Shown here: positions 151 to 16,296 of the stretch, piece by piece | Position numbering within the stretch: the first letter of the stretch is position 1 | Layout: each line of letters opens with the position of its first letter | NCBI GenBank assembly: GCA_015063605.1 | Contig: SVTV01000011.1 | Coordinates: 1 to 64,000 of the forward strand | DNA length: 64,000 bases | Direction of reading: 5' to 3' | DNA from: Oscillospiraceae bacterium | GTDB taxonomy: Bacteria; Bacillota; Clostridia; Oscillospirales; SIG627 | The notes under the pieces: model-generated | What the model was told of the DNA's origin: nothing | What the model saw: only the letters and a program-made list of their open reading frames with translations | Databases searched by the model: none | Program-made: the position numbers and the translations under genes

Positions 151-412
151 AAAAAGTTTGCACTTGTCCGTCAAAAAGGACGACGGACAGTTTGCAAAAG
201 CAAACACGTGCAAACTTTGCACAAGTGCGTAAACCACGCCAAAAAGTTTGCACTTGTCCGCCAAAAAGGACGGCAGACAGTTTGCAAAAGCAAACACGCG
301 CAAACTTCGCATAAGTGCGCAAGCCACGCCAAAAAGTTTGCACTTGTCCGCCAAAAAGGACGGCAGACAGTTTGCAAAAGCAAACACGTGCAAACTTCGC
401 ATAAGTGCGGGT
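151..412. repeat. Tandem direct repeat, 90-bp unit x about 2.9 copies, immediately upstream of GH95 start codon
   Basis: Units at 151-240, 241-330, 331-about 412 nearly identical (AAAAAGTTTGCACTTGTCCG...GCAAAAGCAAACACGTGCAAAC...); internal short inverted repeats (TTTGC-N4-GCAAA, GTGCAAACTTTGCAC). Confidence 0.9.
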
Positions 413-446
413 TACGGTAAAAAATACGAAAGGAACGGTTAAAAAT

Positions 447-2795: not shown

Positions 2796-2835
2796 ATATT
2801 TTTTCATAAAAAATTAATTTTTATGCATTTTGCTA

Positions 2836-2864
2836 TTGCAAAAAATCGAAAAATATTGTATACT
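2836..2864 (+). promoter_or_regulatory. Sigma70-like promoter TTGCAA-17-TATACT for TAXI-TRAP operon
   Basis: ttgcaaaaaatcgaaaaatattgtatact, about 45 bp upstream of SBP gene. Confidence 0.45.
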
Positions 2865-2917
2865 ATTATCCACGTATTTAAGTATTTTAAAATACACTGA
2901 AAGGAATGGTTATAACC

Positions 2918-3868
2918 ATGAAGAAAATTTTAATTTCTGTATTGCTCATTGCGGCAATGGTACTTTCCCTTGTTTCCTGCGGCGCAGGTATGACAATGGG
3001 TACAGGCGGAACATCCGGTACATATTACGCTTACGGCGGAATACTCGGCAACCAGATCAAGGCTTCTGCGGGAATCACGGTTAACGTAGTTTCCACAGAC
3101 GGATCCAAGGCTAACATCCTCGGAATCGATGCAGGCAATTATCAGCTCGGTACAGTTCAGTCCGACGTTATGGCTTATGCATGGAACGGCACAAACACAT
3201 TCGCTGAAGACGGCGCAGTTAAGTCCTTCAGAGTAATCGGCGGCCTCTATGCTGAAGCTGTTCAGCTCGTTACAATGGATTCCTCCATCAAGTCCGTTAA
3301 AGACCTTAAGGGCAAGAGCGTTTCCATCGGTGCTGCAGGCTCCGGTGTTTACTTCAACGCTATAGATATTCTCGCTGCTGCAGGTCTTAAGGAAACAGAC
3401 ATCAAGGCTCAGTATCAGTCCTTCGCTGACTCTGCCGATGCTCTCAAGGATGGCAAGATCGACGCTGCTTTCATCGTTGCAGGCGCTCCCACACCCGCTA
3501 TCCAGGAACTCTGCCAGACAACAGACGCTCGCCTCGTTCCCATCGACGGCGATATCGCTGAAGCTCTTATGTCTTCCTCCGAGTACTACACAGTATACGA
3601 GGTTCCCGCTGAAACATACAAGGGTCAGACAGAAGCTGTTAAGACAGTTACAGTTAAGGCTACTCTTATAGTAAGCGCTAACTCCTCCGAAGAAGACGTT
3701 TACAACGTAACAAAGGCTATATTCGATAATGTTGATGCTATCGCAGCTGCTCACGGTAAGGGCGCAGAGCTCTCCCTCGAGAACGCTACAAGCGGTATGA
3801 CAGCTCCTTTCCACAAGGGCGCTGCTAAGTATTTCGCAGAAAAAGGCATCACTGTTACAGCCGAATAA
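2918..3868 (+). CDS. TAXI-family TRAP transporter solute-binding lipoprotein
   Basis: Lipoprotein signal MKKILISVLLIAAMVLSLVSCGAG; TAXI motifs GTGGTSGTYYAYGGILGN; alternative start 2906. Confidence 0.8.
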   Translation: MKKILISVLLIAAMVLSLVSCGAGMTMGTGGTSGTYYAYGGILGNQIKASAGITVNVVSTDGSKANILGIDAGNYQLGTVQSDVMAYAWNGTNTFAEDGAVKSFRVIGGLYAEAVQLVTMDSSIKSVKDLKGKSVSIGAAGSGVYFNAIDILAAAGLKETDIKAQYQSFADSADALKDGKIDAAFIVAGAPTPAIQELCQTTDARLVPIDGDIAEALMSSSEYYTVYEVPAETYKGQTEAVKTVTVKATLIVSANSSEEDVYNVTKAIFDNVDAIAAAHGKGAELSLENATSGMTAPFHKGAAKYFAEKGITVTAE

Positions 3869-3907
3869 TCTTTTATCAGATTTTAAGTTAATAAAAATAA
3901 TCGCTGA

Positions 3908-3944
3908 GATTGGCTGTGGCTTGATCCCCGCAGCCAATCTTCTT
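3908..3944 (+). other. Intercistronic stem-loop between SBP and permease genes
   Basis: gattggctgtgg...ccgcagccaatc inverted repeat (one mismatch), no T-run; typical stability/partial-termination element between SBP and membrane subunit. Confidence 0.4.
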
Positions 3945-3978
3945 GCGCAAATGCGCATAAAGTCCGAAAGGAGGATCT

Positions 3979-5937
3979 ATGGCATTTTTTAAGAAAAAGG
4001 ATACGCCCGAGGTGCAGGAACCCATGGACCTCGATGAGGTCATGAAAAAATTCGACCGTGAGTCGAATGTCCGTATATGGGAAGGCGTTCCCAAGATCGT
4101 TGTAACATGCATTTTGGCTGTATTTTCCGTATTGTGCATATACGTAACGCTGTGGGCGACATGGCTCGATGAGCTCCGACTCACAACATTTATGGCATTT
4201 ATCGTTTTTAACGGTTATATGATATTTCCCGCGAAAAAAGGTGTGCAGAAGGTAAACTACATACCCTGGTATGATATCGTTCTTATGGCGGCGGGAACTT
4301 GTTCTTTCTTGTATTTCGCAATCAACGCATCCACAATAGTGGCGCGATTCAATATAAATACTCTTGAGGTTATTATAGGTATAATAGGTGTTGCATGCCT
4401 TGCGGAGCTTTGCCGCAGAAGCGTCGGTTTTCCCATACTTATAGTGGCGGGTGTCCTTCTTGTCTATGCAATGATATGGGGCTCCACTAATCCCAGTATC
4501 GTTGCACGTATAACGGAAATGGTAAGAGTTCTCTTCTATTCAAAGGAAGGTATCCTTTCCACTCCCGTAAATGTATGCTCAAAGTATATCGTAATGTTCA
4601 TAATATTCGGTGCATTCCTTGAACGTACCGGTATTGCCGACTTCTTCATAGAAATAGCAAATGCTCTCGTAGGACGTTTTTCCGGCGGTCCCGCAAAGGT
4701 TGCCGTTGTTGCGTCCGCTCTTGAGGGAATGGTATCCGGCTCCTCCGTTGCAAATACGGTCGGTTCCGGCGCAGTCACCATACCGCTCATGAAGCGTACG
4801 GGCTATAAGCCCGAATTTGCCGCCGCTGCGGAAGCTTCCGCATCCACGGGCGGTCAGATCATGCCTCCCATTATGGGTGCTGCGGCGTTCCTTATGGCGG
4901 AGACCATAGGTATGCCTTATTCATCTATAGTTGTAAAGGCTATACTTCCCGCCGTTCTTTACTTTGCGGGCGTATTTATCACAGTTCACCTTGAAGCCAA
5001 AAAAGAAGGTCTGAAGGGCATGAGCAAGGATCAGCTTCCCAGATTGAAGTCCCTTATCAAGCAGACATATCTCCTTCTTCCTCTTGTTCTTCTTATTTAC
5101 CTTGTCGGTACAAGCACATACTCCATAGCTTACGCTGCCGCTATCGCAATAGTTATAGCGATCGTTGTAAGTATGTTCAAAAAAGAGACACGCATGACTC
5201 CCGCCAGACTTTTAGATGCTCTTGCGGCAGGTGCACGGGGAATGATATCCGTTGCGGTCGCCTGCGGTATAGCAGGTATCATAGCAGGTATCATCGGTGT
5301 TACGGGTCTTGCTTATATGCTCTTTAACGGTATAGTTACACTTGCGGGTAATCAGACGATAATCGCTCTCTTCCTTACAATGCTTTGCTGTATCGTTCTC
5401 GGAATGGGAGTTCCCACAACGGCAAATTACTGCATCATGGCGGCTACATGTGCTCCCATACTTGTTCAGATGGGCGTTCCGCTGGTTGCGGCTCACTTCT
5501 TCGTATTCTACTTCGGTATAGTTGCCGACCTTACTCCTCCCGTTGCTCTTGCGGCATATGCGGGCGCGGCAATCGCTCAGGCAAACCCCATGAAGACGGC
5601 TCTGACATCAACGAAGCTTGCCATAGGTGCGTTTATCGTGCCTTACGTTTTCGCATTGAATCCCGTTATGCTTCTTGAGGGTGATCCCGGATTTATTGAG
5701 GTAGCTTTGATAATTGTTACTTCTCTTGTCGGTATATTCGGCGTTTCTGCGGCTCTTGAGGGTTATGTATTCGGACGTATGAACTGGATGCAGAGAATAT
5801 TGTCCGGTGCGGGCGGTCTTCTCCTTATCATCCCCGGTCTCGTTACCGACCTTGCGGGAATAGCGCTTGTTGCTGTAGTTATAGTATGGCAGATCATTGC
5901 AAGAAAGGCTTCCGAAGGAGCAGAAGCAAAGGCGTAA
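3979..5937 (+). CDS. TRAP transporter fused permease (DctQ-DctM fusion, TAXI-associated type)
   Basis: 652 aa polytopic membrane protein immediately downstream of TAXI SBP; length and architecture typical of TAXI-TRAP permeases. Confidence 0.8.
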   Translation: MAFFKKKDTPEVQEPMDLDEVMKKFDRESNVRIWEGVPKIVVTCILAVFSVLCIYVTLWATWLDELRLTTFMAFIVFNGYMIFPAKKGVQKVNYIPWYDIVLMAAGTCSFLYFAINASTIVARFNINTLEVIIGIIGVACLAELCRRSVGFPILIVAGVLLVYAMIWGSTNPSIVARITEMVRVLFYSKEGILSTPVNVCSKYIVMFIIFGAFLERTGIADFFIEIANALVGRFSGGPAKVAVVASALEGMVSGSSVANTVGSGAVTIPLMKRTGYKPEFAAAAEASASTGGQIMPPIMGAAAFLMAETIGMPYSSIVVKAILPAVLYFAGVFITVHLEAKKEGLKGMSKDQLPRLKSLIKQTYLLLPLVLLIYLVGTSTYSIAYAAAIAIVIAIVVSMFKKETRMTPARLLDALAAGARGMISVAVACGIAGIIAGIIGVTGLAYMLFNGIVTLAGNQTIIALFLTMLCCIVLGMGVPTTANYCIMAATCAPILVQMGVPLVAAHFFVFYFGIVADLTPPVALAAYAGAAIAQANPMKTALTSTKLAIGAFIVPYVFALNPVMLLEGDPGFIEVALIIVTSLVGIFGVSAALEGYVFGRMNWMQRILSGAGGLLLIIPGLVTDLAGIALVAVVIVWQIIARKASEGAEAKA

Positions 5938-5954
5938 AATACAAATAAATTAAG

Positions 5955-5998
5955 ACTTGTCTTTTTGCTTTGATGCATGAGACAAGTCTTGTTTTTTT
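5955..5998 (+). terminator. Intrinsic terminator after TRAP permease
   Basis: AGACTTGTCT-N17-AGACAAGTCT followed by TGTTTTTTTC. Confidence 0.7.
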
Positions 5999-6035
5999 CT
6001 TTCAAAAAATGAATAAAAAAGTTTTGTTTTTTGTC

Positions 6036-6064
6036 TTGACTGAAACCGCGGGATGTGGTAATAT
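6036..6064 (+). promoter_or_regulatory. Sigma70-like promoter TTGACT-17-TAATAT
   Basis: ttgactgaaaccgcgggatgtggtaatat upstream of 6118 CDS. Confidence 0.45.
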
Positions 6065-6117
6065 ACTCTTTAACAAATGTTTTGTGATCTTTTGATCGTA
6101 CGGAAAGGGAAAAGCAA

Positions 6118-7071
6118 ATGTTAAACAATATATTCGAACAGGTTAAATACGGCTGTCAGCCCATAAAAAAGCGTCTGAAAAAATGCGGAACCGTTAAAAA
6201 AGGCATCGTAGAAGCCACACCCGTGGTATGGAAGGGAAGGCTTCTGCGTTTTGAATGGATGCGCTCCGCCGCATGGGGAATAGGAAACGAAATGAGAAAG
6301 GACGGCTATTATCATTTTGTGGATATGGAAAACGAACAGGAGGCGGGCGTTCCCTTCGCATATGCTCATTCCTTCGGCTGTGCGTATGAGGAAAACGGCA
6401 TCATGTATGTTCACGGTGTCAACGGAAGCAACGGCGGCACGAACATTATCGATGTTTGTATTTCAAGAGACCTTGTGAATTGGGATATAAAGACCGCCAT
6501 AGTCCTTCCCGAAAATTTACAGATATACAACACCTCCGTGTGCCGCGGCGACGGAAGGTATATAATGGCGATCGAAGTTGCGGGCCCCAAGGAAATGATA
6601 GGTGTACCGTTTACTGTCATATTTGCCGAATCGAATGATCTTCTGAGCTGGAAGCTTCTCCCGATGGATGAGCATATTTATCTTAAGGAAAAGTATACGG
6701 CTTGTCCGTCGATACGGTTTTATGACGGATATTATTACATGGTATATCTTGAAGCATTGCCATTTTACAGATACACACCCTATATTGTCAGATCGAAGGA
6801 TCTAAAGGATTTTGAAGCGGCTATCGTGAACCCCTTCATGATGTTTGACGATGAGGACAAGAGGATAGCCCGAGTCAATTCCCTGGATGCTCCCACTGCT
6901 CAGGCGATGATGAGAGCGGTGAACTGCAACGACAGTGACGTGGATTTCTGTGACTTCAACGGCAAGACCGTTATCCTTTACAGTTGGGGAAATCAGCGGG
7001 GAACGGAATTTCTTGCGAGGGCGGAATATGACGGCACGTTGCAGGAGCTCCTCGAATCATATTTTGAATAA
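6118..7071 (+). CDS. Beta-propeller glycoside-hydrolase-like protein (GH43/GH117/GH130-like fold; family not resolved)
   Basis: 317 aa, no signal peptide, repeated W/Y-rich blade-like segments; sits between transporter and dehydratase genes in GH-rich locus. Confidence 0.3.
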   Translation: MLNNIFEQVKYGCQPIKKRLKKCGTVKKGIVEATPVVWKGRLLRFEWMRSAAWGIGNEMRKDGYYHFVDMENEQEAGVPFAYAHSFGCAYEENGIMYVHGVNGSNGGTNIIDVCISRDLVNWDIKTAIVLPENLQIYNTSVCRGDGRYIMAIEVAGPKEMIGVPFTVIFAESNDLLSWKLLPMDEHIYLKEKYTACPSIRFYDGYYYMVYLEALPFYRYTPYIVRSKDLKDFEAAIVNPFMMFDDEDKRIARVNSLDAPTAQAMMRAVNCNDSDVDFCDFNGKTVILYSWGNQRGTEFLARAEYDGTLQELLESYFE

Positions 7072-7085
7072 TAGAGAATAGTAAA

Positions 7086-7883
7086 ATGAAACCAACATTT
7101 TTGAATCAGAACAGTCCCCTTATTACGGGAATGATATTGAAGGATACACCGGATGAAATACGCTTTGCCGTAAAGAATTCAATATATGACGGTGCGGATT
7201 GCCTCGGAATACAGCTTGAATTTCTGAAAAGAGAATACAGGACGGAGGATAATTTCAGAAGGATCTTCGCCGCCTGCTCCGGTCATCCCATATACATCAC
7301 AAATTACAGAGGCAGAGAAAATACGGGGCTTACGGATGAAGAGATATCCGAGGAGCTTCTTACCGCATTGAGGTGCGGTGCTACGCTTGCCGATGTTCCG
7401 GGAAGCTTTTTCGATGATGAAAGCGGAATGGGAATAGGTCTTGAGCTTTCACGGAAAAAAGATGCGGCGGAAAAACAGATAAGGCTTATCGAAAGGATAC
7501 ACGAAATGGGCAAGGAAGCATTGATGTCCTCCCATGTTCTGAAATTCGCATCTGCTGAGACCGTACTCGAGATTGCATTCGAGCAGCAAAGACGGGGTGC
7601 GGATGTGGTGAAGATAGTAACCGCCGCAAATTCAGACGAAGAGCAGATAGAAAATCTCAGAATAACGAATCTTTTGAAAAAGGAATTGAAGGTGCCGTTT
7701 TTGTTCCTGTCGGGAGGTACTCATTCCAAGATACACAGAATGATTGGTCCCCAGCTGGGTTGTGTCACTTATCTTGCGGTAAGAGAGCATGACGAACGTG
7801 CCGTATCCACACAGCCTACTATAAGAGCGGCAAAGGCGGTAAGAGATAATCTCGATTATTTACCCGATATTATATTGGAATAA
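7086..7883 (+). CDS. Type I 3-dehydroquinate dehydratase-like enzyme (AroD family paralog)
   Basis: AroD-like motifs: SSHVL (catalytic His region), VKIVTAANSDEE (Schiff-base Lys region), SGGTHSKIHRMIGPQLGCVTYLA (MG..G..SRi..G.S.T.A pattern). Confidence 0.5.
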   Translation: MKPTFLNQNSPLITGMILKDTPDEIRFAVKNSIYDGADCLGIQLEFLKREYRTEDNFRRIFAACSGHPIYITNYRGRENTGLTDEEISEELLTALRCGATLADVPGSFFDDESGMGIGLELSRKKDAAEKQIRLIERIHEMGKEALMSSHVLKFASAETVLEIAFEQQRRGADVVKIVTAANSDEEQIENLRITNLLKKELKVPFLFLSGGTHSKIHRMIGPQLGCVTYLAVREHDERAVSTQPTIRAAKAVRDNLDYLPDIILE

Positions 7884-7948
7884 AAAATCGATCCGCCGTA
7901 TCACGGCGGTGCCGTATAAAGTAAATTAATAGAGGTGAAGTCGAAAAA

Positions 7949-8947
7949 ATGAAAAAAGTAAAGGTAGCACAAATTGGCACGAGCAGCTACAGTCATGGCT
8001 CAGCTATATGGAAAAGTATAATAAAGCAGAAAGATGTTTTTGAGGTGGCAGGCTATGCTCTCCCCGAAAACGAGCGTGAAAAATTCTCACAGCAGATGGT
8101 CATATTTGAGGGGTATCCCGAGTTGACCGTTGAGGAGATTATAAACGATCCCGAGATTGAGGGCGTTATAGTGGAGACAGAGGAGATATATCTTACAAAG
8201 TATGCACTTATGGTTGCGGAAGCGGGTAAGCATCTTCACATGGAAAAGCCGGGAAGCGATGATATTGAAGGCTTTGAAAGACTTGTGGATATATTGAAGA
8301 GCAAGGGTCTCGTTTTTTCCACGGGATATATGTACAGATTCAATCCCACGGTAATGGAAGCTATGGAAAAGGTGAAGAACGGAGATCTCGGTAAAATATA
8401 CTCTGTGGAGGCTCACATGAGTATCCTTCACGACAATGCGCTCAGAGAATGGCTCAAGGTGTTCAATGGCGGCATGATGTTTTTCCTCGGATGCCATCTG
8501 ATAGACCTTATCTACCGTATCCAGGGCGAGCCCGACGAGGTCATTCCTCTGAATTGCTCAACGGGATGCGGGGATATCCATGTGGAGGATTATGGTATGG
8601 CAGTATACAAATATCCTAACGGTGTTTCCTTTGCGAAGACATGCGATATAGAATACGGTGGATTTTTACGCAGACAGCTCGTCATCTGCGGAGAAAAGGG
8701 CACTATTGAAATAAAGCCCCTTGAAATGGTGGCATCGGGCGGTCAGCTTACCTTCTCCAACGAATGTTACCACAGGAATATACATCAGCCGTGGGAAAGC
8801 AAGCAAAGCGGACTGTATGACCGATACGACGATATGATGAAAAACTTTGCAGAGCTTGTAAGGGGTAAGGAAAATCCTTATTCCTACGATTATGAGCTGG
8901 GACTTTATAAGCTTATCTTACGTTCCTGCGGAAAGGATATAAAATGA
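7949..8947 (+). CDS. Gfo/Idh/MocA family NAD(P)-dependent oxidoreductase
   Basis: N-terminal Rossmann MKKVKVAQIGTSSYSHG; family-typical EKP motif (HLHMEKPGS); 332 aa. Confidence 0.7.
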   Translation: MKKVKVAQIGTSSYSHGSAIWKSIIKQKDVFEVAGYALPENEREKFSQQMVIFEGYPELTVEEIINDPEIEGVIVETEEIYLTKYALMVAEAGKHLHMEKPGSDDIEGFERLVDILKSKGLVFSTGYMYRFNPTVMEAMEKVKNGDLGKIYSVEAHMSILHDNALREWLKVFNGGMMFFLGCHLIDLIYRIQGEPDEVIPLNCSTGCGDIHVEDYGMAVYKYPNGVSFAKTCDIEYGGFLRRQLVICGEKGTIEIKPLEMVASGGQLTFSNECYHRNIHQPWESKQSGLYDRYDDMMKNFAELVRGKENPYSYDYELGLYKLILRSCGKDIK

Positions 8948-9960
8948 AAACAAAGCAGATAGTTTTTACAAAGCCGTACACGGCAGAGCTTCTTGACCGT
9001 GAATGCCTTCCCCCGAAAGCGGATGAGGTAACCGTACAGCTTGAATATTCCGCGATCAGCGCAGGCACGGAGAAAGCAAATTATACGGGAATGAGAAACG
9101 GAGTAGATCAATCGGAGGACGCAGAGCCTGTATTTCCGAGAACCACTGGCTACAGTGCCGCAGGAACGGTCATAGATGTTGGAAGCGGTATTACCGATAT
9201 ATCCGTAGGCGACAGAGTAGCCGTTTATTGGGGAAACCATAAAAAGCATATCACGGTGACACGTAATAAGGTCATAAAGCTTCCCGAGAGAGTATCCTCT
9301 ATGGAAGGTTCCATGGCGCTTATCTCCACGTTCCCTCTCGGTGCCATAAGAAAAGCCCACCTTGAGATGGGCGAATCCGCATTGGTGATGGGACTTGGTA
9401 TTCTCGGGATTTTTGCGGTGCAGGAGCTTCGTGCGGCGGGAGCTTATCCCGTAATTGCCGCAGATCCCATAAAGGAGCGCCGTGAGCTTGCTTTGAAAAT
9501 GGGAGCGGACGCTGTATTCGATCCCACTGAGGGAGACTTTGCAGGAAATGTGAAGAGGCTTACGGACGGCGGTGTGGATGTCTGCATCGAGGTCACGGGA
9601 TTGGGCATCGGTCTTATTCAGGCGCTTGACTGCATGAAGGAAATGGGAAGAATATCTCTTCTCGGATGCACGAGAAGCTCAAAATTCGAAATAGACTACT
9701 ACAGCAAGGTGCATGGAAAGGGTATACAGCTTCTGGGAGCACATACGAGGGCGCGTCCGAAATTCGAATCATCTTACGGCTTATGGACGGATGCAGATGA
9801 TATGAAGACAGTTCTCGGACTTATTGAAGGAAAGAGACTCAATTTCAAGGATATGATCGGTGAGATACATTCTCCCGCAGATGCTTCCGCAGTGTATGAC
9901 AGACTTGTAAACGATAAAAAATTCCCCGTTGGAGTTTTGTTCGATTGGAGCAGAATATAA
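8944..9960 (+). CDS. Zinc-binding medium-chain dehydrogenase/reductase (sorbitol/threonine dehydrogenase-like)
   Basis: 338 aa MDR architecture; ATGA start overlap with upstream gene (translational coupling). Confidence 0.6.
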   Translation: MKTKQIVFTKPYTAELLDRECLPPKADEVTVQLEYSAISAGTEKANYTGMRNGVDQSEDAEPVFPRTTGYSAAGTVIDVGSGITDISVGDRVAVYWGNHKKHITVTRNKVIKLPERVSSMEGSMALISTFPLGAIRKAHLEMGESALVMGLGILGIFAVQELRAAGAYPVIAADPIKERRELALKMGADAVFDPTEGDFAGNVKRLTDGGVDVCIEVTGLGIGLIQALDCMKEMGRISLLGCTRSSKFEIDYYSKVHGKGIQLLGAHTRARPKFESSYGLWTDADDMKTVLGLIEGKRLNFKDMIGEIHSPADASAVYDRLVNDKKFPVGVLFDWSRI

Positions 9961-10877
9961 TGAAAAAAGCTTTACTTATAGCAGGAGGCGGAACTCTCGG
10001 TACTTACACAGCAGAGGAGCTTCTGCGTCTCGGACACAGCGTTGATATCATTTGCCTTGAGGATAAGGTATCCGATAATAAAGATCTGAGATACTATAAG
10101 GCGAATGCCACGCTGGAATTCCTTCGTGAGCTTTTCAAGGAGAACCGCTATGACGGTATAGTCAATTTTATCCATTACAAGAATCATCTCGACTATATTC
10201 CCTATCATGAATTGCTGACGGAAAACACGGATCATCTTATCTTTCTGTCCTCATACCGTGTTTATGCGGATCTTGAACATCCCGTCAGGGAAACATCCCC
10301 GCAGCTTATAGACGTTATAAAGGACGATCCCGAGTTTTTCGAAAAGGAGGATTACGCCCTGTCAAAGTCCAAGGCTGAAAGATTCCTGCGTGACAATCCG
10401 TATCCGAAAAAATGGACTATAGTCCGTCCCGTTATCTCCTTCTCGGACAGAAGACTTGATATAAATATGGTCTCCCGTCATGAAGTGATCGAAGCGGTGA
10501 AGGAGGGAAGAAAGGTCAGACTTCCCATCGAAGCAAAGCATCTTACGGCAGGTCTTGATTGGGCGGGAAACTCGGGTAAGATAATAGCCAACCTTCTCTT
10601 CAAGAAGGAATGTATAGGAGAAGCCTATACGGTATCCTCAGCTCAGAATCTCACAACGGCGGAGATCGCGGATATTTATACCGAGGTGCTGGGTGTGGAA
10701 TTCGAATGGGTTCCCGCAGACTTTAAAAGCGACAATTTCAATTGGCGCTACGACAGAATATATGACAGAACCATAGATAATTCAAAGGTGCTCGCGGCTG
10801 CGGGGCTTGAACCCTCGGATTTCAAGAGCATCAAGGAAGGCTTGATAACGGAGCTTAAAAAGCTCGGTGCTATCTGA
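9960..10877 (+). CDS. NAD(P)-binding Rossmann-fold protein (NmrA/atypical SDR epimerase-like)
   Basis: MKKALLIAGGGTLGTYTAEELLRLGHSV glycine-rich dinucleotide-binding motif; TAATG overlap with upstream gene. Confidence 0.55.
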   Translation: MKKALLIAGGGTLGTYTAEELLRLGHSVDIICLEDKVSDNKDLRYYKANATLEFLRELFKENRYDGIVNFIHYKNHLDYIPYHELLTENTDHLIFLSSYRVYADLEHPVRETSPQLIDVIKDDPEFFEKEDYALSKSKAERFLRDNPYPKKWTIVRPVISFSDRRLDINMVSRHEVIEAVKEGRKVRLPIEAKHLTAGLDWAGNSGKIIANLLFKKECIGEAYTVSSAQNLTTAEIADIYTEVLGVEFEWVPADFKSDNFNWRYDRIYDRTIDNSKVLAAAGLEPSDFKSIKEGLITELKKLGAI

Positions 10878-10897
10878 CAGAAAGGAACGATCGCAAA

Positions 10898-11872
10898 ATG
10901 AAAGCAGTACTTATAAACGATGACAAGTCATTAAGATGGGACAATGTTCCCGATCCCGTGACAGGATCCGAGGACGTACTTATAAAGGTGGAATATGCGG
11001 CTCTTAACCGTGCCGATCTTCTTCAGAGACAGGGAGATTATCCTCCCCCTCCCGGTTGCCCCGAATGGATGGGACTTGAGGTCTCGGGCGAGATAGTCGA
11101 AATGGGAGATAAGGCAAAGGAGGAGTCGGGCTACAAGATAGGTGATAAGGTCTGCGCACTTCTCGGAGGCGGCGGTTATGCGGAATACGTTTGTGTAAAG
11201 CATGATATGTGTATGCCCGTGCCGAAAAACTGCACTATGGCTGAGGCGGCGTGCATCCCCGAGGCTTTTGCCACGGCTTATCTTAAGCTTTTTGTTGAGG
11301 GGAAAGCAAAGGCGGGAGATACTCTTCTCGTTCATGCGGGAGCAAGCGGACTTTCCAGCGTCGTCATTCCCATGGCAAAGCAGTTCGGACTCAGAGTAAT
11401 TACCACAGTAAGAAGAGATCCCGAGGCGGTATCACATCTCGGAGCGGACATAGTTATAGACACAAGAAAGGACAGCCTTGCCGAATTGCTTAAGAAAGAG
11501 GAGGAAGAGGGAAGAGCGGTGGATATCGCCATCGACTGCCTCGGCGGTAAAGCCTTAGGTGAATGTCTTCCCTACGTTAAGTACGGATGCCGCTGGATAG
11601 TTATTGCGGCGCTGGCAGGCTCGGAAACCACGATCGACCTTAAGAATATTTATAAAAAGAATATAAGGATAATAGGAAGCACACTCCGTTCCCGTGCTCC
11701 CGAAATGAAGGCGCAGATATTGAAGAGCATAGTTTCCGAAATATATCCCAAGGTGGAAAGCGGACTTATCAAGCCTACGCTTTATAAGGTGTTTCCCATA
11801 ACGGAAGCGGAAAAGGCTCACGATGTGCTTTTGCACAGCGAGAACAACGGCAAGGTCGTTCTGAAGGTGTGA
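10898..11872 (+). CDS. Quinone oxidoreductase / zinc-free MDR family NADPH oxidoreductase
   Basis: 324 aa, Qor/PIG3-like layout ...VHAGASGLSS... nucleotide-binding region. Confidence 0.6.
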   Translation: MKAVLINDDKSLRWDNVPDPVTGSEDVLIKVEYAALNRADLLQRQGDYPPPPGCPEWMGLEVSGEIVEMGDKAKEESGYKIGDKVCALLGGGGYAEYVCVKHDMCMPVPKNCTMAEAACIPEAFATAYLKLFVEGKAKAGDTLLVHAGASGLSSVVIPMAKQFGLRVITTVRRDPEAVSHLGADIVIDTRKDSLAELLKKEEEEGRAVDIAIDCLGGKALGECLPYVKYGCRWIVIAALAGSETTIDLKNIYKKNIRIIGSTLRSRAPEMKAQILKSIVSEIYPKVESGLIKPTLYKVFPITEAEKAHDVLLHSENNGKVVLKV

Positions 11873-11930
11873 CAGTCTGAAACAGCGTCGATCGTTTGAT
11901 CGTTACGGTGCTTGAAGTATAAAGAAAGGT

Positions 11931-14765
11931 GTGGTTATAATTATGGCTGACAGAAGTGTTTCTTTGAGCGGAGCATGGAAAATAATAAAAGATACCGAAA
12001 ATAACGGAAAAGAAATCGGATGGCAGTACGGTATCCCCGATACGGAGGTCTTTGATGCATTTGTCCCCGCATCTCTTGCTCCGGAACAATGGATAATGAA
12101 TCTTTCCTATTCGAATGTGTTTCCGGGATATCATGGCTTTGTATGGTATTATAAGACTCTTGATACTCTGCCGAGGGTCGGCGAGGGAGAAAGATGTCTT
12201 CTTGAATTCGATCATGCGGGTCATCTTTGCAGGATATATGTGAACGGCATATTTATCGGTGAACACAGAGGTCATGAAAAGAGATTTTATTTCGATATAA
12301 CGGATGCGCTCAAGGGTGATGGAAGCGACCTTCTGGCGGTAAATTGCTTTGAGCCGCGGGCTACGGGCAGACCGATAGAGGGAATAATGCTGTCCGACCT
12401 TCCCAATGCCTGCTGGGCGAATACCCAAGGCTTTATGGCAGGAGCAGAAAACTCCTTCTGTCTTGAATGTGTGGGCGGCATTCTCGGTGAAGTAAGATTG
12501 CGCTCTGCAGGTGATATCACCATTGAGGATGTTTATATACGCCCCGATCACAAAAGCGGAGACGTAAAAGTGAAGCTTGAGGTCATAAACGCTTCCTCAG
12601 ATACAAGGCTTGAAAATGTCGGATTTGTGATATCGGATCAAAAAAGGGGTATCCCCGTAACGGAGCTTTCGAAGGTGGTAAAGATCCCTTCGGGAAGCTC
12701 CGAGGTTACTCTCGAATGTAACGTGCCGTGCCATAAGCTGTGGTCTGTGAGCGATCCATACCTATACGTTGCGAATATATCCCTCGGAAGCGGTGAAAAA
12801 TGCACTCTGCGTTTCGGATTCAAGGATTTCAGGGTGAAAAACGGTTATTTCTTTCTTAATGACAAGCGGATCTTCCTTAAGGGCGCTCACTCTCTCGTTT
12901 CCGCAGAGGCTTGTATTACAATGAAAGCGCTGGGCTTCAATGCCATACGCACCATTTCCCGTTCATTTACCGAGGAAGCTCTGAACGTATGCGACGAGAT
13001 AGGCATGCTCGTTATAGATGCCGCTCTGACGGGATGGGGTATGTTCATGCACGATAATACCCGCTCGCAGATCGAGGAGTATAATGAAAATACGATCCGT
13101 GCCCACCGCAACCATCCATGTATTGCCGCTTACGGTATCTTCAATGAGCTGGGCGGTAAACGTGATGTGTTTGAGTGCGGTGTTGAAGCGTTGCCGAAGC
13201 TTCGTGTACTTGCTCCCGATACGGTCTTTTTCCTTCACAGCGGCAGGTGGGACAGAGATATAACGCTCGGAAGCGTATCGAATCCCGGTTCGGACAGATG
13301 GGATACGTATTTCGGAGCGGAGGGCTGTCCCGATCATCCCGACAGAGAACTTCCGATGCACTTTGACGGATATCAAGATCCCGCAATGGGAGATATCCAT
13401 ATTTATATGCACGTTCCCGTAACGGGCAGAGTCAAAAATTATCTGCGGAATATCGGTCGTGACACTAATCCCGTGTTCGTCAGCGAATCGGGAATAGCAT
13501 CGCAGAACGATCCCATGCGTGATCTTCTCATTCACAGCGGCTTAAAGCTGTCTGAAGCCGTAACGGTGGAGACCGTCCGTTCAACATTGGAGGAAGCGGA
13601 AGCTTTTCTCGACTTTTACGGTCTTCGTTCCGTTTATCCCTTGATACATGATCTGAGCCGTGATACCGATAAGCTGAACGGAGCTCAAAGGTCGATGCTT
13701 TATGATATATACCGTTCAAATCCCAAGATAAACGGCTTCAGCTTTACGAGCTTCGGAATAAGTAATGAGGGCACAAATGAAAATAATTGGCTTGTGAAGG
13801 AATCCCTTGCGTATGCCTTGCAGAACGGTCATGCCCCCTTGCGTTGGGCGCTTTTCTCCGAAGAACGCACGGTATATGCCGATAAGCCCTTTACCGTGGA
13901 GGCGGTCTTGTGCAATGAGGATGTGCTTGATCCGGGTACATATAAAGCATTGGCTTATATAAAGGGAAAGAACGGCGTAGTGTGGGAAAAGAGCTTTGAT
14001 GCCGTATATCCCGAAAAAGGCTTCGGCTCAATGATGCCGCTTGCGGCACGCGTATTGAAGGAAAATGTTTCTCTTCCCGCAGGTGAGTATGTATTTACCG
14101 TAAGACTCCTTGAGGGAGGAATGGCTTGCGGCGGTGAGCTTTCCGTAACGGTGGCAAAGGCGGATGATTTCAAGGGAGACATTTACGTATGGGGAATATC
14201 GGATAAGATGCGCTCGTTTATTGAAGCCAAAGGAATATCGGTTCACGATCTGTCGGAGATCCAAAATGAAGACAGTGTATGTACGGTATTGGTGGGATGT
14301 CCCGAAAACGGAGAATACATTTCACTTCTCCGCACCATTGCGGAAAAAGGTGCATCTGTCATTTTCACCGACTTTCATTATTTACTTAAAGAAAAAGAGC
14401 TTCTTTGTAGTATAGCCGGTGAAGGTACCGCTATTGCGGATGCAATGGGAACTATATATCATTACGATCATATCGCTGCCTGCCCCGATGTGTTTGACGG
14501 AATCCAGAATATAGGCGTATTGGACTTCGACAGATACGGCGAGGTGTATCCGCAGCAGGTGATAAAGCCTTATAAAAAGCCCGATAAGACTCTTTGTGCG
14601 GGAATTCGCATAGAAACGACATTTTGCTATACGGGACTTTCTCTCGGAGAATATTCTGCGGGAAAGGGACGCTTTGTGGTAAACACCTTCAGAATTGAGG
14701 AGACCTTGGGACAGCATCCCTTCGCCGACAAGCTTCTGATGAATCTGATCAAAAAGTATAATTAA
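11931..14765 (+). CDS. Glycoside hydrolase family 2-like protein (beta-galactosidase/mannosidase/glucuronidase superfamily)
   Basis: N-terminal GH2 sugar-binding domain pattern (DHAGHLCRIYVNGIFIGEHRGHEKRFYFDITDAL), central TIM barrel with NE motif (GIFNELGG); 944 aa. Confidence 0.55.
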   Translation: MVIIMADRSVSLSGAWKIIKDTENNGKEIGWQYGIPDTEVFDAFVPASLAPEQWIMNLSYSNVFPGYHGFVWYYKTLDTLPRVGEGERCLLEFDHAGHLCRIYVNGIFIGEHRGHEKRFYFDITDALKGDGSDLLAVNCFEPRATGRPIEGIMLSDLPNACWANTQGFMAGAENSFCLECVGGILGEVRLRSAGDITIEDVYIRPDHKSGDVKVKLEVINASSDTRLENVGFVISDQKRGIPVTELSKVVKIPSGSSEVTLECNVPCHKLWSVSDPYLYVANISLGSGEKCTLRFGFKDFRVKNGYFFLNDKRIFLKGAHSLVSAEACITMKALGFNAIRTISRSFTEEALNVCDEIGMLVIDAALTGWGMFMHDNTRSQIEEYNENTIRAHRNHPCIAAYGIFNELGGKRDVFECGVEALPKLRVLAPDTVFFLHSGRWDRDITLGSVSNPGSDRWDTYFGAEGCPDHPDRELPMHFDGYQDPAMGDIHIYMHVPVTGRVKNYLRNIGRDTNPVFVSESGIASQNDPMRDLLIHSGLKLSEAVTVETVRSTLEEAEAFLDFYGLRSVYPLIHDLSRDTDKLNGAQRSMLYDIYRSNPKINGFSFTSFGISNEGTNENNWLVKESLAYALQNGHAPLRWALFSEERTVYADKPFTVEAVLCNEDVLDPGTYKALAYIKGKNGVVWEKSFDAVYPEKGFGSMMPLAARVLKENVSLPAGEYVFTVRLLEGGMACGGELSVTVAKADDFKGDIYVWGISDKMRSFIEAKGISVHDLSEIQNEDSVCTVLVGCPENGEYISLLRTIAEKGASVIFTDFHYLLKEKELLCSIAGEGTAIADAMGTIYHYDHIAACPDVFDGIQNIGVLDFDRYGEVYPQQVIKPYKKPDKTLCAGIRIETTFCYTGLSLGEYSAGKGRFVVNTFRIEETLGQHPFADKLLMNLIKKYN

Positions 14766-14796
14766 GGATCGGTTTCGGATAATGAATAATGACGGC

Positions 14797-14838
14797 GGTG
14801 CCCGCGTAAGACATGGGTACCGCTTCTTTTTTATCAGG
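14797..14838 (+). terminator. Intrinsic terminator after GH2 gene
   Basis: GCGGTGCCC-N-GGGTACCGC hairpin followed by TTCTTTTTTA. Confidence 0.65.
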
Positions 14839-14997
14839 ATCAAACGTCAATGTGAGCCGAAAACGATTATTCGTTGTAAAAAATGTAATCTGCTTACATT
14901 ATTCATTGCAAAAAGTGTGATTTGATTGCAAAATACGTTGTAATTTTTGTATTTTTATGATATACTATAATTACATAATTATTACGGAGGTGCGTAT

Positions 14998-16296
14998 ATG
15001 TATCGGATCGCCATTGAAAGGCTGTTTAAATGGAAGGAAAGCAAATACCGAAAGCCGATGATCATTGAAGGCGCCCGTCAGGTCGGTAAGACATGGCTGA
15101 TGAAGGAATTCGGCAGACAGGCGTACGAGAAGACCGTATATATCAATTTTGACTCCAATTCAAGGATGGCGGAGCTTTTCTCTTCGGATCTTGATACGGA
15201 GCGTCTGATAATGGGTCTGGAGCTGTATTCGGGACAAAGGATCGATCCGGGTAAGACCTTGCTGATATTCGATGAGGTCCAGGAGGTTCCGAGAGCGCTG
15301 TCTTCCCTTAAATACTTTTATGAAAATGCTCCGCAGTATCATATTGTGTGCGCAGGCTCATTGCTCGGGATAGCCTTGCATCAAGGTACGTCCTTTCCCG
15401 TAGGAAAGGTTGATTTTCTGAAGCTGTATCCGCTCTCCTTCAAGGAATATCTGATGGCAACGGAAAAAGAACGGTTCGCGGAATTGATAGATACGAATGA
15501 TTTCCAAATGATCACAAGCTTCAGGCAAACATATATCGATTCCCTGAAGATGTATTATTTCGTGGGCGGAATGCCCGAAGCGGTACAAAGCTTTGCGGAA
15601 AATAAAGATCTTAATGAGGTACGTGAGATACAAAAGCGGATACTCGCGGCGTATGAGCAGGATTTTTCAAAGCACGCTCCCAATGAGATCGTACCGAGGA
15701 TACGTATGCTGTGGAACAGTATACCGTCCCAGCTTGCCAAAGAAAACAAGAAGTTCATCTACGGTATTGTCCGTGAGGGCGCAAGGGCGAAGGAATACGA
15801 AAGTGCGATAATGTGGCTCAGCGACTGCGGTCTTGTCCACAAGGTCAGCCGTGTCAATGCTCCGGGTATCCCTTTGCGGGCGTATGAGGACTTGAAGGCA
15901 TTTAAGCTGTTTGCGTTGGATATAGGACTTCTCGGATGCATGGCGGGGCTGCGTAGGACGGCATTGCTTGACGGCAACGATCTTTTCGTTGAGTTCAAGG
16001 GTGCTCTTACCGAACAGTATGTATGCCAGCAGCTGAAGACCGTTGAGGGAGTGGATATTTATTACTACACCAATGACAGGGGCTCCTGCGAGGTCGATTT
16101 TGTTGTTGATACGGGCGAGCGGATAGTCCCTGTAGAAGTGAAGGCAGAGGTGAATCTCAAGGCAAAAAGCCTTAAGACATACATGGAGAAATTCTCTCCC
16201 GAAATCTCGGTACGCACATCCATGGCGGATTACAAAGTAAGCGACGGTCTTGTCGACCTTCCGTTGTATGCGGTCTGCCGCATCACCATGATATGA
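14998..16296 (+). CDS. AAA+ ATPase with DUF4143 domain (AAA_14 family ATP-binding protein)
   Basis: Walker A GARQVGKTWL near N-terminus, 432 aa, architecture typical of DUF4143 ATPases. Confidence 0.7.
   Translation: MYRIAIERLFKWKESKYRKPMIIEGARQVGKTWLMKEFGRQAYEKTVYINFDSNSRMAELFSSDLDTERLIMGLELYSGQRIDPGKTLLIFDEVQEVPRALSSLKYFYENAPQYHIVCAGSLLGIALHQGTSFPVGKVDFLKLYPLSFKEYLMATEKERFAELIDTNDFQMITSFRQTYIDSLKMYYFVGGMPEAVQSFAENKDLNEVREIQKRILAAYEQDFSKHAPNEIVPRIRMLWNSIPSQLAKENKKFIYGIVREGARAKEYESAIMWLSDCGLVHKVSRVNAPGIPLRAYEDLKAFKLFALDIGLLGCMAGLRRTALLDGNDLFVEFKGALTEQYVCQQLKTVEGVDIYYYTNDRGSCEVDFVVDTGERIVPVEVKAEVNLKAKSLKTYMEKFSPEISVRTSMADYKVSDGLVDLPLYAVCRITMI

Follow-up and report, generated by a model that had tools for sequence, protein, structure and literature searches.

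A mobile gene module of gut Clostridia centred on a dehydroquinase-like enzyme distinct from AroD, possibly encoding a pathway that oxidises, dehydrates and reduces its substrate

The window analysed here is a stretch of 64,000 nucleotides from an Oscillospiraceae bacterium (assembly GCA_015063605.1, contig SVTV01000011.1, positions 1 to 64,000 of the forward strand). Near its left end lies an operon, spanning from about 6036 to 14833, that encodes seven proteins: a β-propeller protein, a protein resembling type I dehydroquinase (DHQase), a Gfo/Idh/MocA dehydrogenase, a medium-chain dehydrogenase/reductase (MDR), an extended short-chain dehydrogenase/reductase (SDR), an NAD(P)H quinone oxidoreductase (QOR) and a GH2-like protein (Table 1). 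The DHQase-like protein, its gene partners and the reaction sequence in which they might cooperate are the subject of this analysis.

Co-directional genes fill positions 405–14765 on the plus strand. All the open reading frames (ORFs) named in an initial annotation of the window were recovered in place, and the family assigned to each of them was upheld by Pfam, NCBIfam or structural comparison. The terminator located downstream of the TRAP permease gene forms a hairpin of -21.5 kcal/mol (z = -4.65) that none of 200 shuffled sequences equalled. Because this terminator and a promoter-like site separate them from the first gene of the operon, the GH95 and TAXI-TRAP genes are neighbours belonging to separate transcription units. 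At the other end, the GH2-like gene is assigned to the same unit as the QOR gene since the 58-nt spacer preceding it shows no significant RNA structure and a terminator follows it. The initial annotation described the oxidoreductase genes as translationally coupled, and both overlaps that it invoked are real, namely ATGA at the Gfo/MDR junction (8944–8947) and TAATG at the MDR/extended SDR junction (9958–9962). However, these are the only two, and the remaining intergenic gaps measure 14, 65, 20 and 58 nt. The 65-nt gap contains a hairpin lacking a U-run on the plus strand, which is possibly an RNA stability or processing element. No riboswitch or other known RNA was detected in the leader regions (no Rfam match at E ≤ 0.1).

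Table 1. Genes and regulatory features at the left end of the window
Feature	Position	Strand	Remarks
GH95	405–2795	+	PF22124, 504 bits; neighbour outside the conserved module
TAXI solute-binding protein	2906–3868	+	TIGR02122, 316.6 bits (cut-off 84); outside the conserved module
Fused TRAP permease (DctQM-type)	3979–5937	+	TIGR02123, 649 bits (cut-off 321); outside the conserved module
Intrinsic terminator 3' of the TRAP permease gene	5951–5999	+	13-bp stem followed by U7; upstream operon boundary
Promoter-like site	6036–6064	+	TTGACT, 17 nt, TAATAT with upstream TG; precedes the first gene; consensus match only
β-propeller protein	6118–7071	+	317 aa; without assigned family
Type I DHQase-like TIM barrel	7086–7883	+	PF01487, 59 bits; signature gene of the module
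GC-rich 7-bp hairpin	7893–7909	+	In the 65-nt gap 3' of the DHQase-like gene; z = -1.8, not significant
Gfo/Idh/MocA NAD(P) dehydrogenase	7949–8947	+	PF01408, PF22725, PF02894
Zinc-less MDR (BchC-like or IolM-like)	8944–9960	+	PF00107, PF08240
Atypical extended-SDR-like protein	9960–10877	+	True start ATG 9960; weak PF01370 match, E = 4.9e-5
PIG3-family NAD(P)H QOR	10898–11872	+	TIGR02824, 335.5 bits (cut-off 296.8)
Divergent GH2-like protein	11943–14765	+	ORF opens at GTG 11931, likely start ATG 11943; last gene of the unit
Intrinsic terminator closing the operon	~14794–14833	+	11-bp GC-rich stem, then UUCUUUUUU

The DHQase-like protein was modelled with AlphaFold2 (pLDDT 81.5), and the 50 best matches of the model in a Foldseek search of the PDB were all type I dehydroquinases (best TM score, 0.75), which predicts a (β/α)8 barrel of the AroD type. 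Nevertheless, it scored only 40.6 bits against the AroD equivalog TIGR01093, below the cut-off of 139.3, and 25.9 bits against NF002683 (cut-off, 329), with a weak secondary match to PF01791 (DeoC/LacD). Residues were mapped through a MAFFT alignment with E. coli AroD, an independent profile comparison (hhalign) and an alignment of 25 family members sharing 32–56% identity. Lys176, His150 and Arg218, which correspond to the Schiff-base Lys170, His143 and Arg213 of AroD, are invariant among the 25 members, and Arg75 and Gln243 (AroD Arg82 and Gln236) are nearly invariant. These data bear out the initial view that the His and Schiff-base Lys regions of the DHQase fold are retained. In contrast, Glu86, the partner of His143 in AroD, is replaced by Asn79, a position that holds Asn in the majority of close members and varies among the distant ones. 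Neither alignment places an Arg at the position of AroD Arg48, the residue equivalent to Glu46 varies, and the protein carries an insertion of about 15–20 residues at approximately residues 106–125 as well as a conserved N-terminus, MKPTFLNQ. In AroD, Arg213 binds the substrate carboxylate, and Glu46 and Arg48 contact the C4 and C5 hydroxyls of dehydroquinate. Read against AroD in this way, the Schiff-base β-elimination machinery of the DHQase-like protein is intact, and the part of the pocket facing the C4 and C5 hydroxyls appears to differ.

The DHQase-like family is large and discrete, with 1733 matching proteins in a 90%-clustered database and, in a 50%-clustered library, 691 clusters at E ≤ 1e-3 and 173 at 1e-30. 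The named members in these protein databases all derive from uncultured genomes and are labelled 'type I 3-dehydroquinate dehydratase'. Since the family fails the AroD definition and sits in inducible catabolic clusters, as described below, this annotation is probably wrong for the family as a whole.

Four oxidoreductases are encoded downstream of the DHQase-like gene. The Gfo/Idh/MocA protein combines an N-terminal Rossmann domain with a C-terminal α/β domain; its three Pfam matches lie above the gathering thresholds, and it reaches no NCBIfam equivalog. Its nearest solved relatives are distant (DgpA, YhhX, 1,5-anhydrofructose reductase and YjhC; E about 1e-14 to 1e-9), and it is a candidate for the oxidation of a secondary alcohol to a ketone. 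The MDR matches TIGR01202 over its full length and IolM in part. It had been described as a zinc enzyme, a claim that the alignment with E. coli Tdh contradicts: the catalytic-zinc ligand Cys38 is replaced by Ala (with a Ser alongside), His63 by Tyr and the neighbouring Glu64 by Ser, and the four-Cys structural-zinc lobe is missing, with 29 residues deleted. Because the alignable catalytic-zinc ligands and the structural lobe are both absent, we classify this MDR as zinc-less. The extended-SDR-like protein shows, on direct reading, a GGGTLG Rossmann motif and a YALSK motif, yielded no match at E ≤ 0.1 in a PDB sequence search and occurs solely inside the module described below, in five loci of the sample; it represents a second uncharacterised family. 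Finally, the QOR matches TIGR02824 over residues 1–324, and its best solved relatives are 4dup and human PIG3 (2j8z; E about 1e-55). Compared with E. coli Tdh, it has neither the catalytic Cys or His nor the structural-zinc lobe, in keeping with a zinc-less MDR architecture. Conjugated enones are the products that type I DHQase chemistry forms from β-hydroxy ketones, and QOR-type zinc-less MDRs act as reductases of quinones and activated C=C bonds; the QOR is proposed to act as the reductase of an enone or dione.

A genome scan for related loci returned 35, nearly all of them in genomes of animal-gut Clostridia from rumen, goat, sheep, deer, buffalo, rabbit, chicken and Hadza human sources. 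Further loci were added through individual protein look-ups, and their neighbours were compared by tblastn and all-against-all clustering; the resulting gene counts cover about 41 loci, not all of them complete and a small number redundant. In the usual layout, a divergent AraC gene faces one or two classical SDR genes followed by the DHQase-like gene, the QOR gene and a gene for a 217-aa lactonase-like protein of the MBL fold with an AiiA-type match. The DHQase-like gene was present in 39 of these loci, the QOR gene in 35, classical SDR genes in 30, AraC in 23 and MBL in 15. Gfo (12 loci), zinc-less MDR (9), GDSL (5) and extended SDR (5) genes make up an optional block that, where present, separates the DHQase-like gene from the QOR gene. 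This neighbourhood comparison, which had been put forward as a check on the initial annotation, reveals that in about 35 of the roughly 41 loci, from many genomes, the DHQase-like gene has the QOR gene next to it or close by, far more often than chance would produce. Moreover, the identities of the two proteins drop together across loci, from 84 to 44% for the DHQase-like protein and from 80 to 56% for the QOR. Glycosidase genes (GH29, GH3, GH43, GH78, GH2, GH4 and GH38) are frequent near the Clostridial loci. The GH95, TRAP, propeller and GH2 genes of the window were not found with the module in any other of about 40 loci.

The module is accessory and mobile rather than housekeeping. One metagenome-assembled genome (JAZUPZ01) carries two separate loci with both a DHQase-like and a QOR gene (L005 and L009), and another locus (L021, 4–1300) contains tandem DHQase-like genes whose products are 82% and 76% identical to the window protein. 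The module lies beside a Tn916-type integrase and Xis in L037 (3327–4859) and beside TraG and NlpC/P60 conjugation genes in L013 (15579–18801), and is interrupted by insertion-sequence transposases in L045 (809–1408 and 8911–9933). These mobile-element neighbours, together with DHQase-like proteins about 80% identical across different Clostridia families, suggest horizontal spread. Neighbours belonging to the shikimate (aro) pathway were not seen in about 70 loci with annotated neighbours or recurrent neighbour clusters.

More distant relatives were identified on plasmids by tblastn in Mesorhizobium sp. B2-1-8, Halobellus limi (two copies), Natrinema and Halomarina. In Mesorhizobium, the gene order is FAH-family hydrolase, DHQase-like protein, D-lactate dehydrogenase, three SDRs, DUF4286, NAD(P)H-quinone oxidoreductase and SDR, and the first SDR, the DHQase-like protein and the QOR are 38%, 35% and 36% identical, respectively, to their Clostridial counterparts. 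The DHQase-like and QOR pair of this plasmid, pB2-1-8, is recorded as WP_140758421.1 and WP_227792284.1. The FAH protein encoded there matches 2,4-didehydro-3-deoxy-L-rhamnonate hydrolase over its full length, and the FAH proteins beside distant members score 372 (Mesorhizobium) and 208 bits for this hydrolase, both under the equivalog cut-off of 500. The DUF4286 gene (L052, 14304–14993) stands between the SDR genes and the QOR gene, and no counterpart of it was seen in the Clostridial loci. The surroundings in Halobellus include a galactonate-dehydratase (dgoD) homologue, a Zn-dehydrogenase, an SDR and 2-hydroxyacid dehydrogenases, with sugar ABC permeases near. On the Halobellus limi megaplasmid, two divergent DHQase-like genes flank an SDR gene near the galactonate-dehydratase homologue (L053, 7249–9879), and in one of the two copies the near-invariant Gln is replaced by Trp.

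Similar surroundings recur in metagenomes. A 2.3-Mb contig (L055) carries genes for a 2-hydroxyacid dehydrogenase, FAH, SDR, AraC, a DHQase-like protein, a zinc-less MDR and a CUT2 sugar ABC transporter, whose binding protein had no PDB match at the strict threshold of E ≤ 1e-10. Another contig combines a CUT1 ABC transporter with Gfo and DHQase-like genes, and in a third an FGGY sugar kinase gene is co-transcribed with AraC opposite SDR, DHQase-like and SDR genes. In 27 further metagenome loci drawn from a subgroup alignment, mostly on short contigs, SDR, AraC, Gfo and CUT1 permease genes recur and the QOR gene appears only once; Pfam scans of the neighbours in the metagenome loci revealed no recurrent new partner. 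Enolase-type or IlvD-type aldonate dehydratases are absent from the Clostridial, Mesorhizobium and L055 clusters, the dgoD homologue being confined to Halobellus. Taken together, the constant association is that of a ketone-making dehydrogenase with the DHQase-like protein under AraC, often with sugar uptake genes, to which a PIG3-type reductase is added in gut Clostridia and Mesorhizobium.

Two genes of the window operon encode glycosidase-like proteins. The β-propeller protein has no sequence match in Pfam, NCBIfam or the PDB. Its AlphaFold2 model (pLDDT 93.9) has five blades, and the nearest structures found by Foldseek are GH137 BT_0996, GH130 and GH43 (TM score 0.5–0.6, probability 1.0, about 12% identity). 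Its homologues number 583 and are called 'hypothetical' wherever the source gives a name; PF04616 matched only 2 of the 120 listed. Direct reading reveals no N-terminal signal peptide, and the protein is considered cytoplasmic. As its homologues are stand-alone genes in unrelated contexts, we rejected it as a conserved partner of the module. The GH2-like protein has weak matches to PF00703, PF02837 and PF02836 (E 1e-5 to 1e-8), the barrel match covering only residues 328–408, and its nearest solved relatives are gut β-glucuronidases (E about 1e-17). Its C-terminal half, about 530 aa following the GH2 core (13170–14765), matched nothing in Pfam or NCBIfam. Judging from their shared membership of the operon, it is plausible that these two proteins act on an imported glycoside and so supply the substrate.

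Among the solved structures closest to the TAXI protein are the Thermus GluR0-type (glutamate-receptor-like) binding core 1us4 and another TAXI protein, 8s4j (E about 1e-49). TRAP systems of the TAXI class usually carry carboxylates. The 1us4 protein and VC0430 (8s4j) bind glutamate, which weakens the link between the TRAP system and the operon. The initial annotation viewed the gene set as bracketed by GH95 and GH2 and served by the TAXI-TRAP transporter. The GH2-like gene does belong to the operon, but the bracket is conserved in no other locus. A single fucose-linked unit of GH95, TRAP and cluster was likewise rejected in view of the intervening terminator and promoter-like site, the lack of conservation of these neighbours and the TAXI resemblance to glutamate-binding proteins. 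For the same reasons, and because the propeller homologues are stand-alone genes, the proposed link to the breakdown of fucosylated glycans is weak. The start of the GH95 gene is likely ATG 447, as solved homologues align from residues 13–18 of the ORF opened at 405. Just 5' of this gene, and overlapping GTG 405, lies a 90-bp tandem repeat (150–409; 2.9 copies, 94% matches), each unit of which contains inverted GTTTGCA/TGCAAAC motifs. Between the TAXI binding-protein and permease genes (3869–3978), a GC-rich hairpin, GATTGGCTG...CAGCCAATC, is followed by TTCTT and may be an attenuator setting the ratio of binding protein to permease. Beyond the operon, an imperfect 32-bp tandem repeat (14866–14943; 2.4 copies, 73% matches) is located between the GH2 terminator and an AAA-ATPase gene (14998–16296).

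We judge the chances about even that the operon at ~6036–14833 represents one version of a catabolic module that has spread horizontally, with a type I DHQase-fold protein other than AroD as its signature enzyme, and that its enzymes oxidise, dehydrate and reduce their substrate. From the gene content, the operon boundaries, the fold, the retained catalytic residues and the conserved partners, we infer the following chemistry and substrate. In a first step, a polyol of the six-carbon type, which could be a sugar, sugar acid, ulosonic acid or cyclitol carboxylate, would have one of its secondary alcohols oxidised to a ketone by an NAD(P) dehydrogenase; the enzyme would be the Gfo/Idh/MocA protein, the zinc-less MDR or the extended SDR in the window, and one or two classical SDRs in most other loci. 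In a second step, Lys176 of the DHQase-like enzyme would form a Schiff base with this ketone and, with His150 as acid/base, the α proton would be removed and the oxygen on the β-carbon expelled, the substrate being held by Arg218, Arg75 and Gln243. In a third step, the PIG3-type QOR would reduce the resulting enone or dione. Overall, the substrate would undergo redox-assisted deoxygenation or ring-opening and pass into central metabolism. Among the relatives, a 2,4-diketo-3-deoxy-acid hydrolase may take part in the route together with a lactate or 2-hydroxyacid dehydrogenase, and in the window the substrate would be freed from an imported glycoside by the cytoplasmic propeller and the GH2-like protein.

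The retention of Arg218, Arg75 and Gln243 suggests that the carbon bearing the leaving oxygen also bears a carboxylate, as in 3-dehydroquinate, 4-keto 3-deoxy-ulosonic acids, 3-keto-uronates and 4-keto-aldonates, among which the data make no choice. The suggestion of the initial annotation that the genes serve the oxidation and dehydration of a cyclitol or sugar acid fits the dehydrogenases, AraC, the distant sugar ABC transporters, the rhamnonate-type diketo-hydrolase and the lactate and 2-hydroxyacid dehydrogenases, and its view that this is not a standard fucose or galactose pathway is supported. Among the three substrate classes that it named (quinate-like, inositol-like or a deoxy-sugar route) the evidence does not choose; owing to the sugar-type surroundings of the distant members, it tilts towards a sugar or sugar acid rather than quinate.

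Several observations weigh against this oxidise-dehydrate-reduce scheme. The model of the DHQase-like protein is poor (pLDDT < 50) over residues 212–235, which include Arg218. The active site is remodelled (Arg48 lost, Glu46 variable, Glu86 replaced by Asn), and on a barrel of the class I aldolase type a retro-aldol or hydrolytic reaction is equally possible. Furthermore, no AraC, classical SDR or MBL homologue was found in the 64-kb window, so the window operon may differ in its job from the common form. The QOR regularly accompanies the DHQase-like protein only in the Clostridial subfamily, on the Mesorhizobium plasmid and in a few further cases; since only SDR and AraC recur across the wider family, the coupling of enone and QOR may be a trait of a single lineage. 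Finally, the step lacking an assigned enzyme in the relatives of non-phosphorylative type is the dehydration of an aldonate, which a Schiff-base enzyme could not perform directly, without prior oxidation, because an aldonate has no carbonyl.

An alternative, which we regard as unlikely, is that the module reduces hydroaromatic acids: a dehydrogenase would convert quinate, shikimate or an analogue to 3-dehydroquinate, the DHQase-like enzyme would form 3-dehydroshikimate, and the QOR would reduce the C=C bond of the latter, leading towards dihydroshikimate and cyclohexanecarboxylate-type products and providing an electron sink in anaerobes of the herbivore gut. AroD is indeed the closest fold and the only family match of the DHQase-like protein, the equivalents of its Arg213, Arg82, Gln236, His143 and Lys170 are kept, and such a route requires an enone reductase after the dehydratase. 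The neighbouring transporter, moreover, is of a class that usually carries carboxylates, and the great majority of members stem from genomes of the herbivore rumen and hindgut. Lactic acid bacteria have been reported to reduce quinate via shikimate to dihydroshikimate as a hydrogen acceptor (PMC13204703; PMC7427622). In the literature consulted, we found physiological statements and no genes assigned to the routes from quinate to dihydroshikimate or cyclohexanecarboxylate, a point in favour of this alternative, and nothing relevant on 'dehydroquinase-like' enzymes. It is opposed by the lack of conservation of the C4/C5-hydroxyl contacts Glu46 and Arg48, and the annotated neighbours include no quinate/shikimate dehydrogenase of the AroE/YdiB type and no recognisable chlorogenate esterase. 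In addition, distant members are accompanied by monosaccharide-type ABC transporters, rhamnonate-type diketo-hydrolases, the galactonate-dehydratase homologue and the sugar kinase, and the TRAP system forms a separate unit whose binding protein resembles glutamate-binding proteins.

It is rather improbable that the DHQase-like protein is instead a class I (Schiff-base) aldolase or C–C hydrolase whose substrate, a 2-keto-3-deoxy or 2,4-diketo-3-deoxy sugar acid, would be cleaved as part of a non-phosphorylative deoxy-sugar route resembling those for L-fucose, L-rhamnose or L-galactose, with the QOR and the other MDR handling the aldehyde. Its fold falls within the class I aldolase superfamily, as echoed by the weak DeoC/LacD match, and enzymes that liberate 6-deoxy-L-hexoses are repeatedly encoded nearby (GH95 in the window, GH29 and GH78 elsewhere). 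The lactonase-like MBL protein and glucose-1-dehydrogenase-like SDRs of the relatives would also suit such a route, as would the LRA6-like hydrolase and D-lactate dehydrogenase that adjoin the gene in Mesorhizobium. However, the nearest structures are all dehydratases, and the relative positions of Lys, His and Arg match those of AroD. Outside Halobellus with its dgoD homologue, the clusters examined contain no enolase-type or IlvD-type dehydratase to make the keto-deoxy acid, and zinc-less QORs are poor aldehyde reductases.

That the protein is simply the organism's housekeeping AroD, with oxidoreductase and glycosidase genes side by side by coincidence, is very unlikely: although public pipelines label members as type I 3-dehydroquinate dehydratases, the catalytic Lys and His are intact and the comparison covered gene flanks rather than whole genomes that may hold a second aroD or aroQ, this identity, which the initial annotation had itself named, with co-regulated shikimate genes, as a possible refutation, was rejected on the sub-threshold TIGR01093 score, an hhalign probability of only 62% with E. 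coli AroD, the residue changes at Glu86 and Arg48, the absence of shikimate-pathway neighbours, divergent promoters under AraC control, the paralogous and tandem copies, the location on plasmids or beside integrases, TraG and insertion sequences, and a gene order with QOR and SDR kept across phyla.

Returning to the scheme of oxidation, dehydration and reduction, we propose, tentatively and with somewhat less than even confidence, that the DHQase-like proteins constitute a new enzyme class on the AroD scaffold, acting as Schiff-base β-eliminases of keto-sugars, keto-sugar-acids or keto-cyclitols. An SDR and a PIG3-type reductase would complete, with them, an undescribed 'oxidise, eliminate, reduce' pathway, supplying either the missing dehydratase step of a non-phosphorylative sugar route or the genes for reductive quinate/shikimate metabolism in herbivore guts. 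Under both versions the module would have spread horizontally among gut Clostridia, rhizobial plasmids and haloarchaeal megaplasmids. If this chemistry is true, it would add a new reaction type to a textbook fold and a missing step to the processing of plant polyols and acids by anaerobes of plant-eating animals. The cultured carriers Mesorhizobium sp. B2-1-8 and Halobellus limi make the question directly testable.

With AroD (EC 4.2.1.10), the DHQase-like protein shares the TIM-barrel fold and the equivalents of Lys170, His143, Arg213, Arg82 and Gln236. It differs in its sub-threshold score, the replacement of Glu86 by Asn, the loss of Arg48 (and of Glu46, depending on how the sequences are aligned), the insertion at ~106–125 and the MKPTFLNQ N-terminus, and its genes lie in AraC-controlled clusters of oxidoreductases and sugar transport rather than with aro genes. 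The enzymes required by lactobacilli to reduce quinate to dihydroshikimate, namely a hydroaromatic dehydrogenase, a dehydroquinase and a C=C reductase, correspond to the set seen here, and this metabolism acts as an electron sink in plant-fed anaerobes. Nevertheless, the AroD contacts to the C4 and C5 hydroxyls are not kept, and the distant relatives occur in sugar-type contexts.

The non-phosphorylative diketo-hydrolase pathway of L-rhamnose and L-fucose (LRA1, 2, 3, 5 and 6) resembles the module in that relatives of the latter include sugar-dehydrogenase-like SDRs, a lactonase-like hydrolase, FAH and lactate or 2-hydroxyacid dehydrogenases, and fucosidase and rhamnosidase genes neighbour it. 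Unlike that pathway, the Clostridial, Mesorhizobium and L055 clusters lack an enolase-type or IlvD-type aldonate dehydratase, the FAH matches are under cut-off and the window is devoid of FAH, lactonase and classical SDR; the LRA pathway itself, in turn, has no DHQase-like or PIG3-type enzyme. In inositol catabolism (IolG then IolE, or IolG/IolM/IolN in Thermotoga), a Gfo/Idh/MocA enzyme makes a ring ketone that is then dehydrated by β-elimination. The Gfo protein of the window matches IolG in part, its zinc-less MDR matches the scyllo-inosose 3-dehydrogenase IolM in part, and one relative of the module has CUT2-type ABC transporters. However, these matches fall far under the cut-offs (60 vs 355 and 78 vs 450 bits), no IolE, IolD, IolB, IolC or IolJ homologue is present, and the dehydratase of inositol catabolism is a xylose-isomerase-like barrel rather than an AroD barrel.

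Lastly, in the oxidation-elimination cleavage of glycosides (DgpA-type 3-oxidases, and NanOx/YjhC via a 4-keto intermediate), a ketone made by a Gfo/Idh/MocA enzyme activates β-elimination at an oxygen-bearing carbon. The window Gfo protein has DgpA and YjhC among its closest solved relatives, and its operon also contains glycosidase-like genes; the similarity is nonetheless generic (E about 1e-14 to 1e-9), and in these systems the lyase is a xylose-isomerase-like barrel or the oxidoreductase itself rather than a Schiff-base enzyme resembling AroD. Every component of the module comes from a known superfamily; the novelty lies in a branch of the AroD fold that is sizeable, probably misannotated and linked to conserved redox partners.

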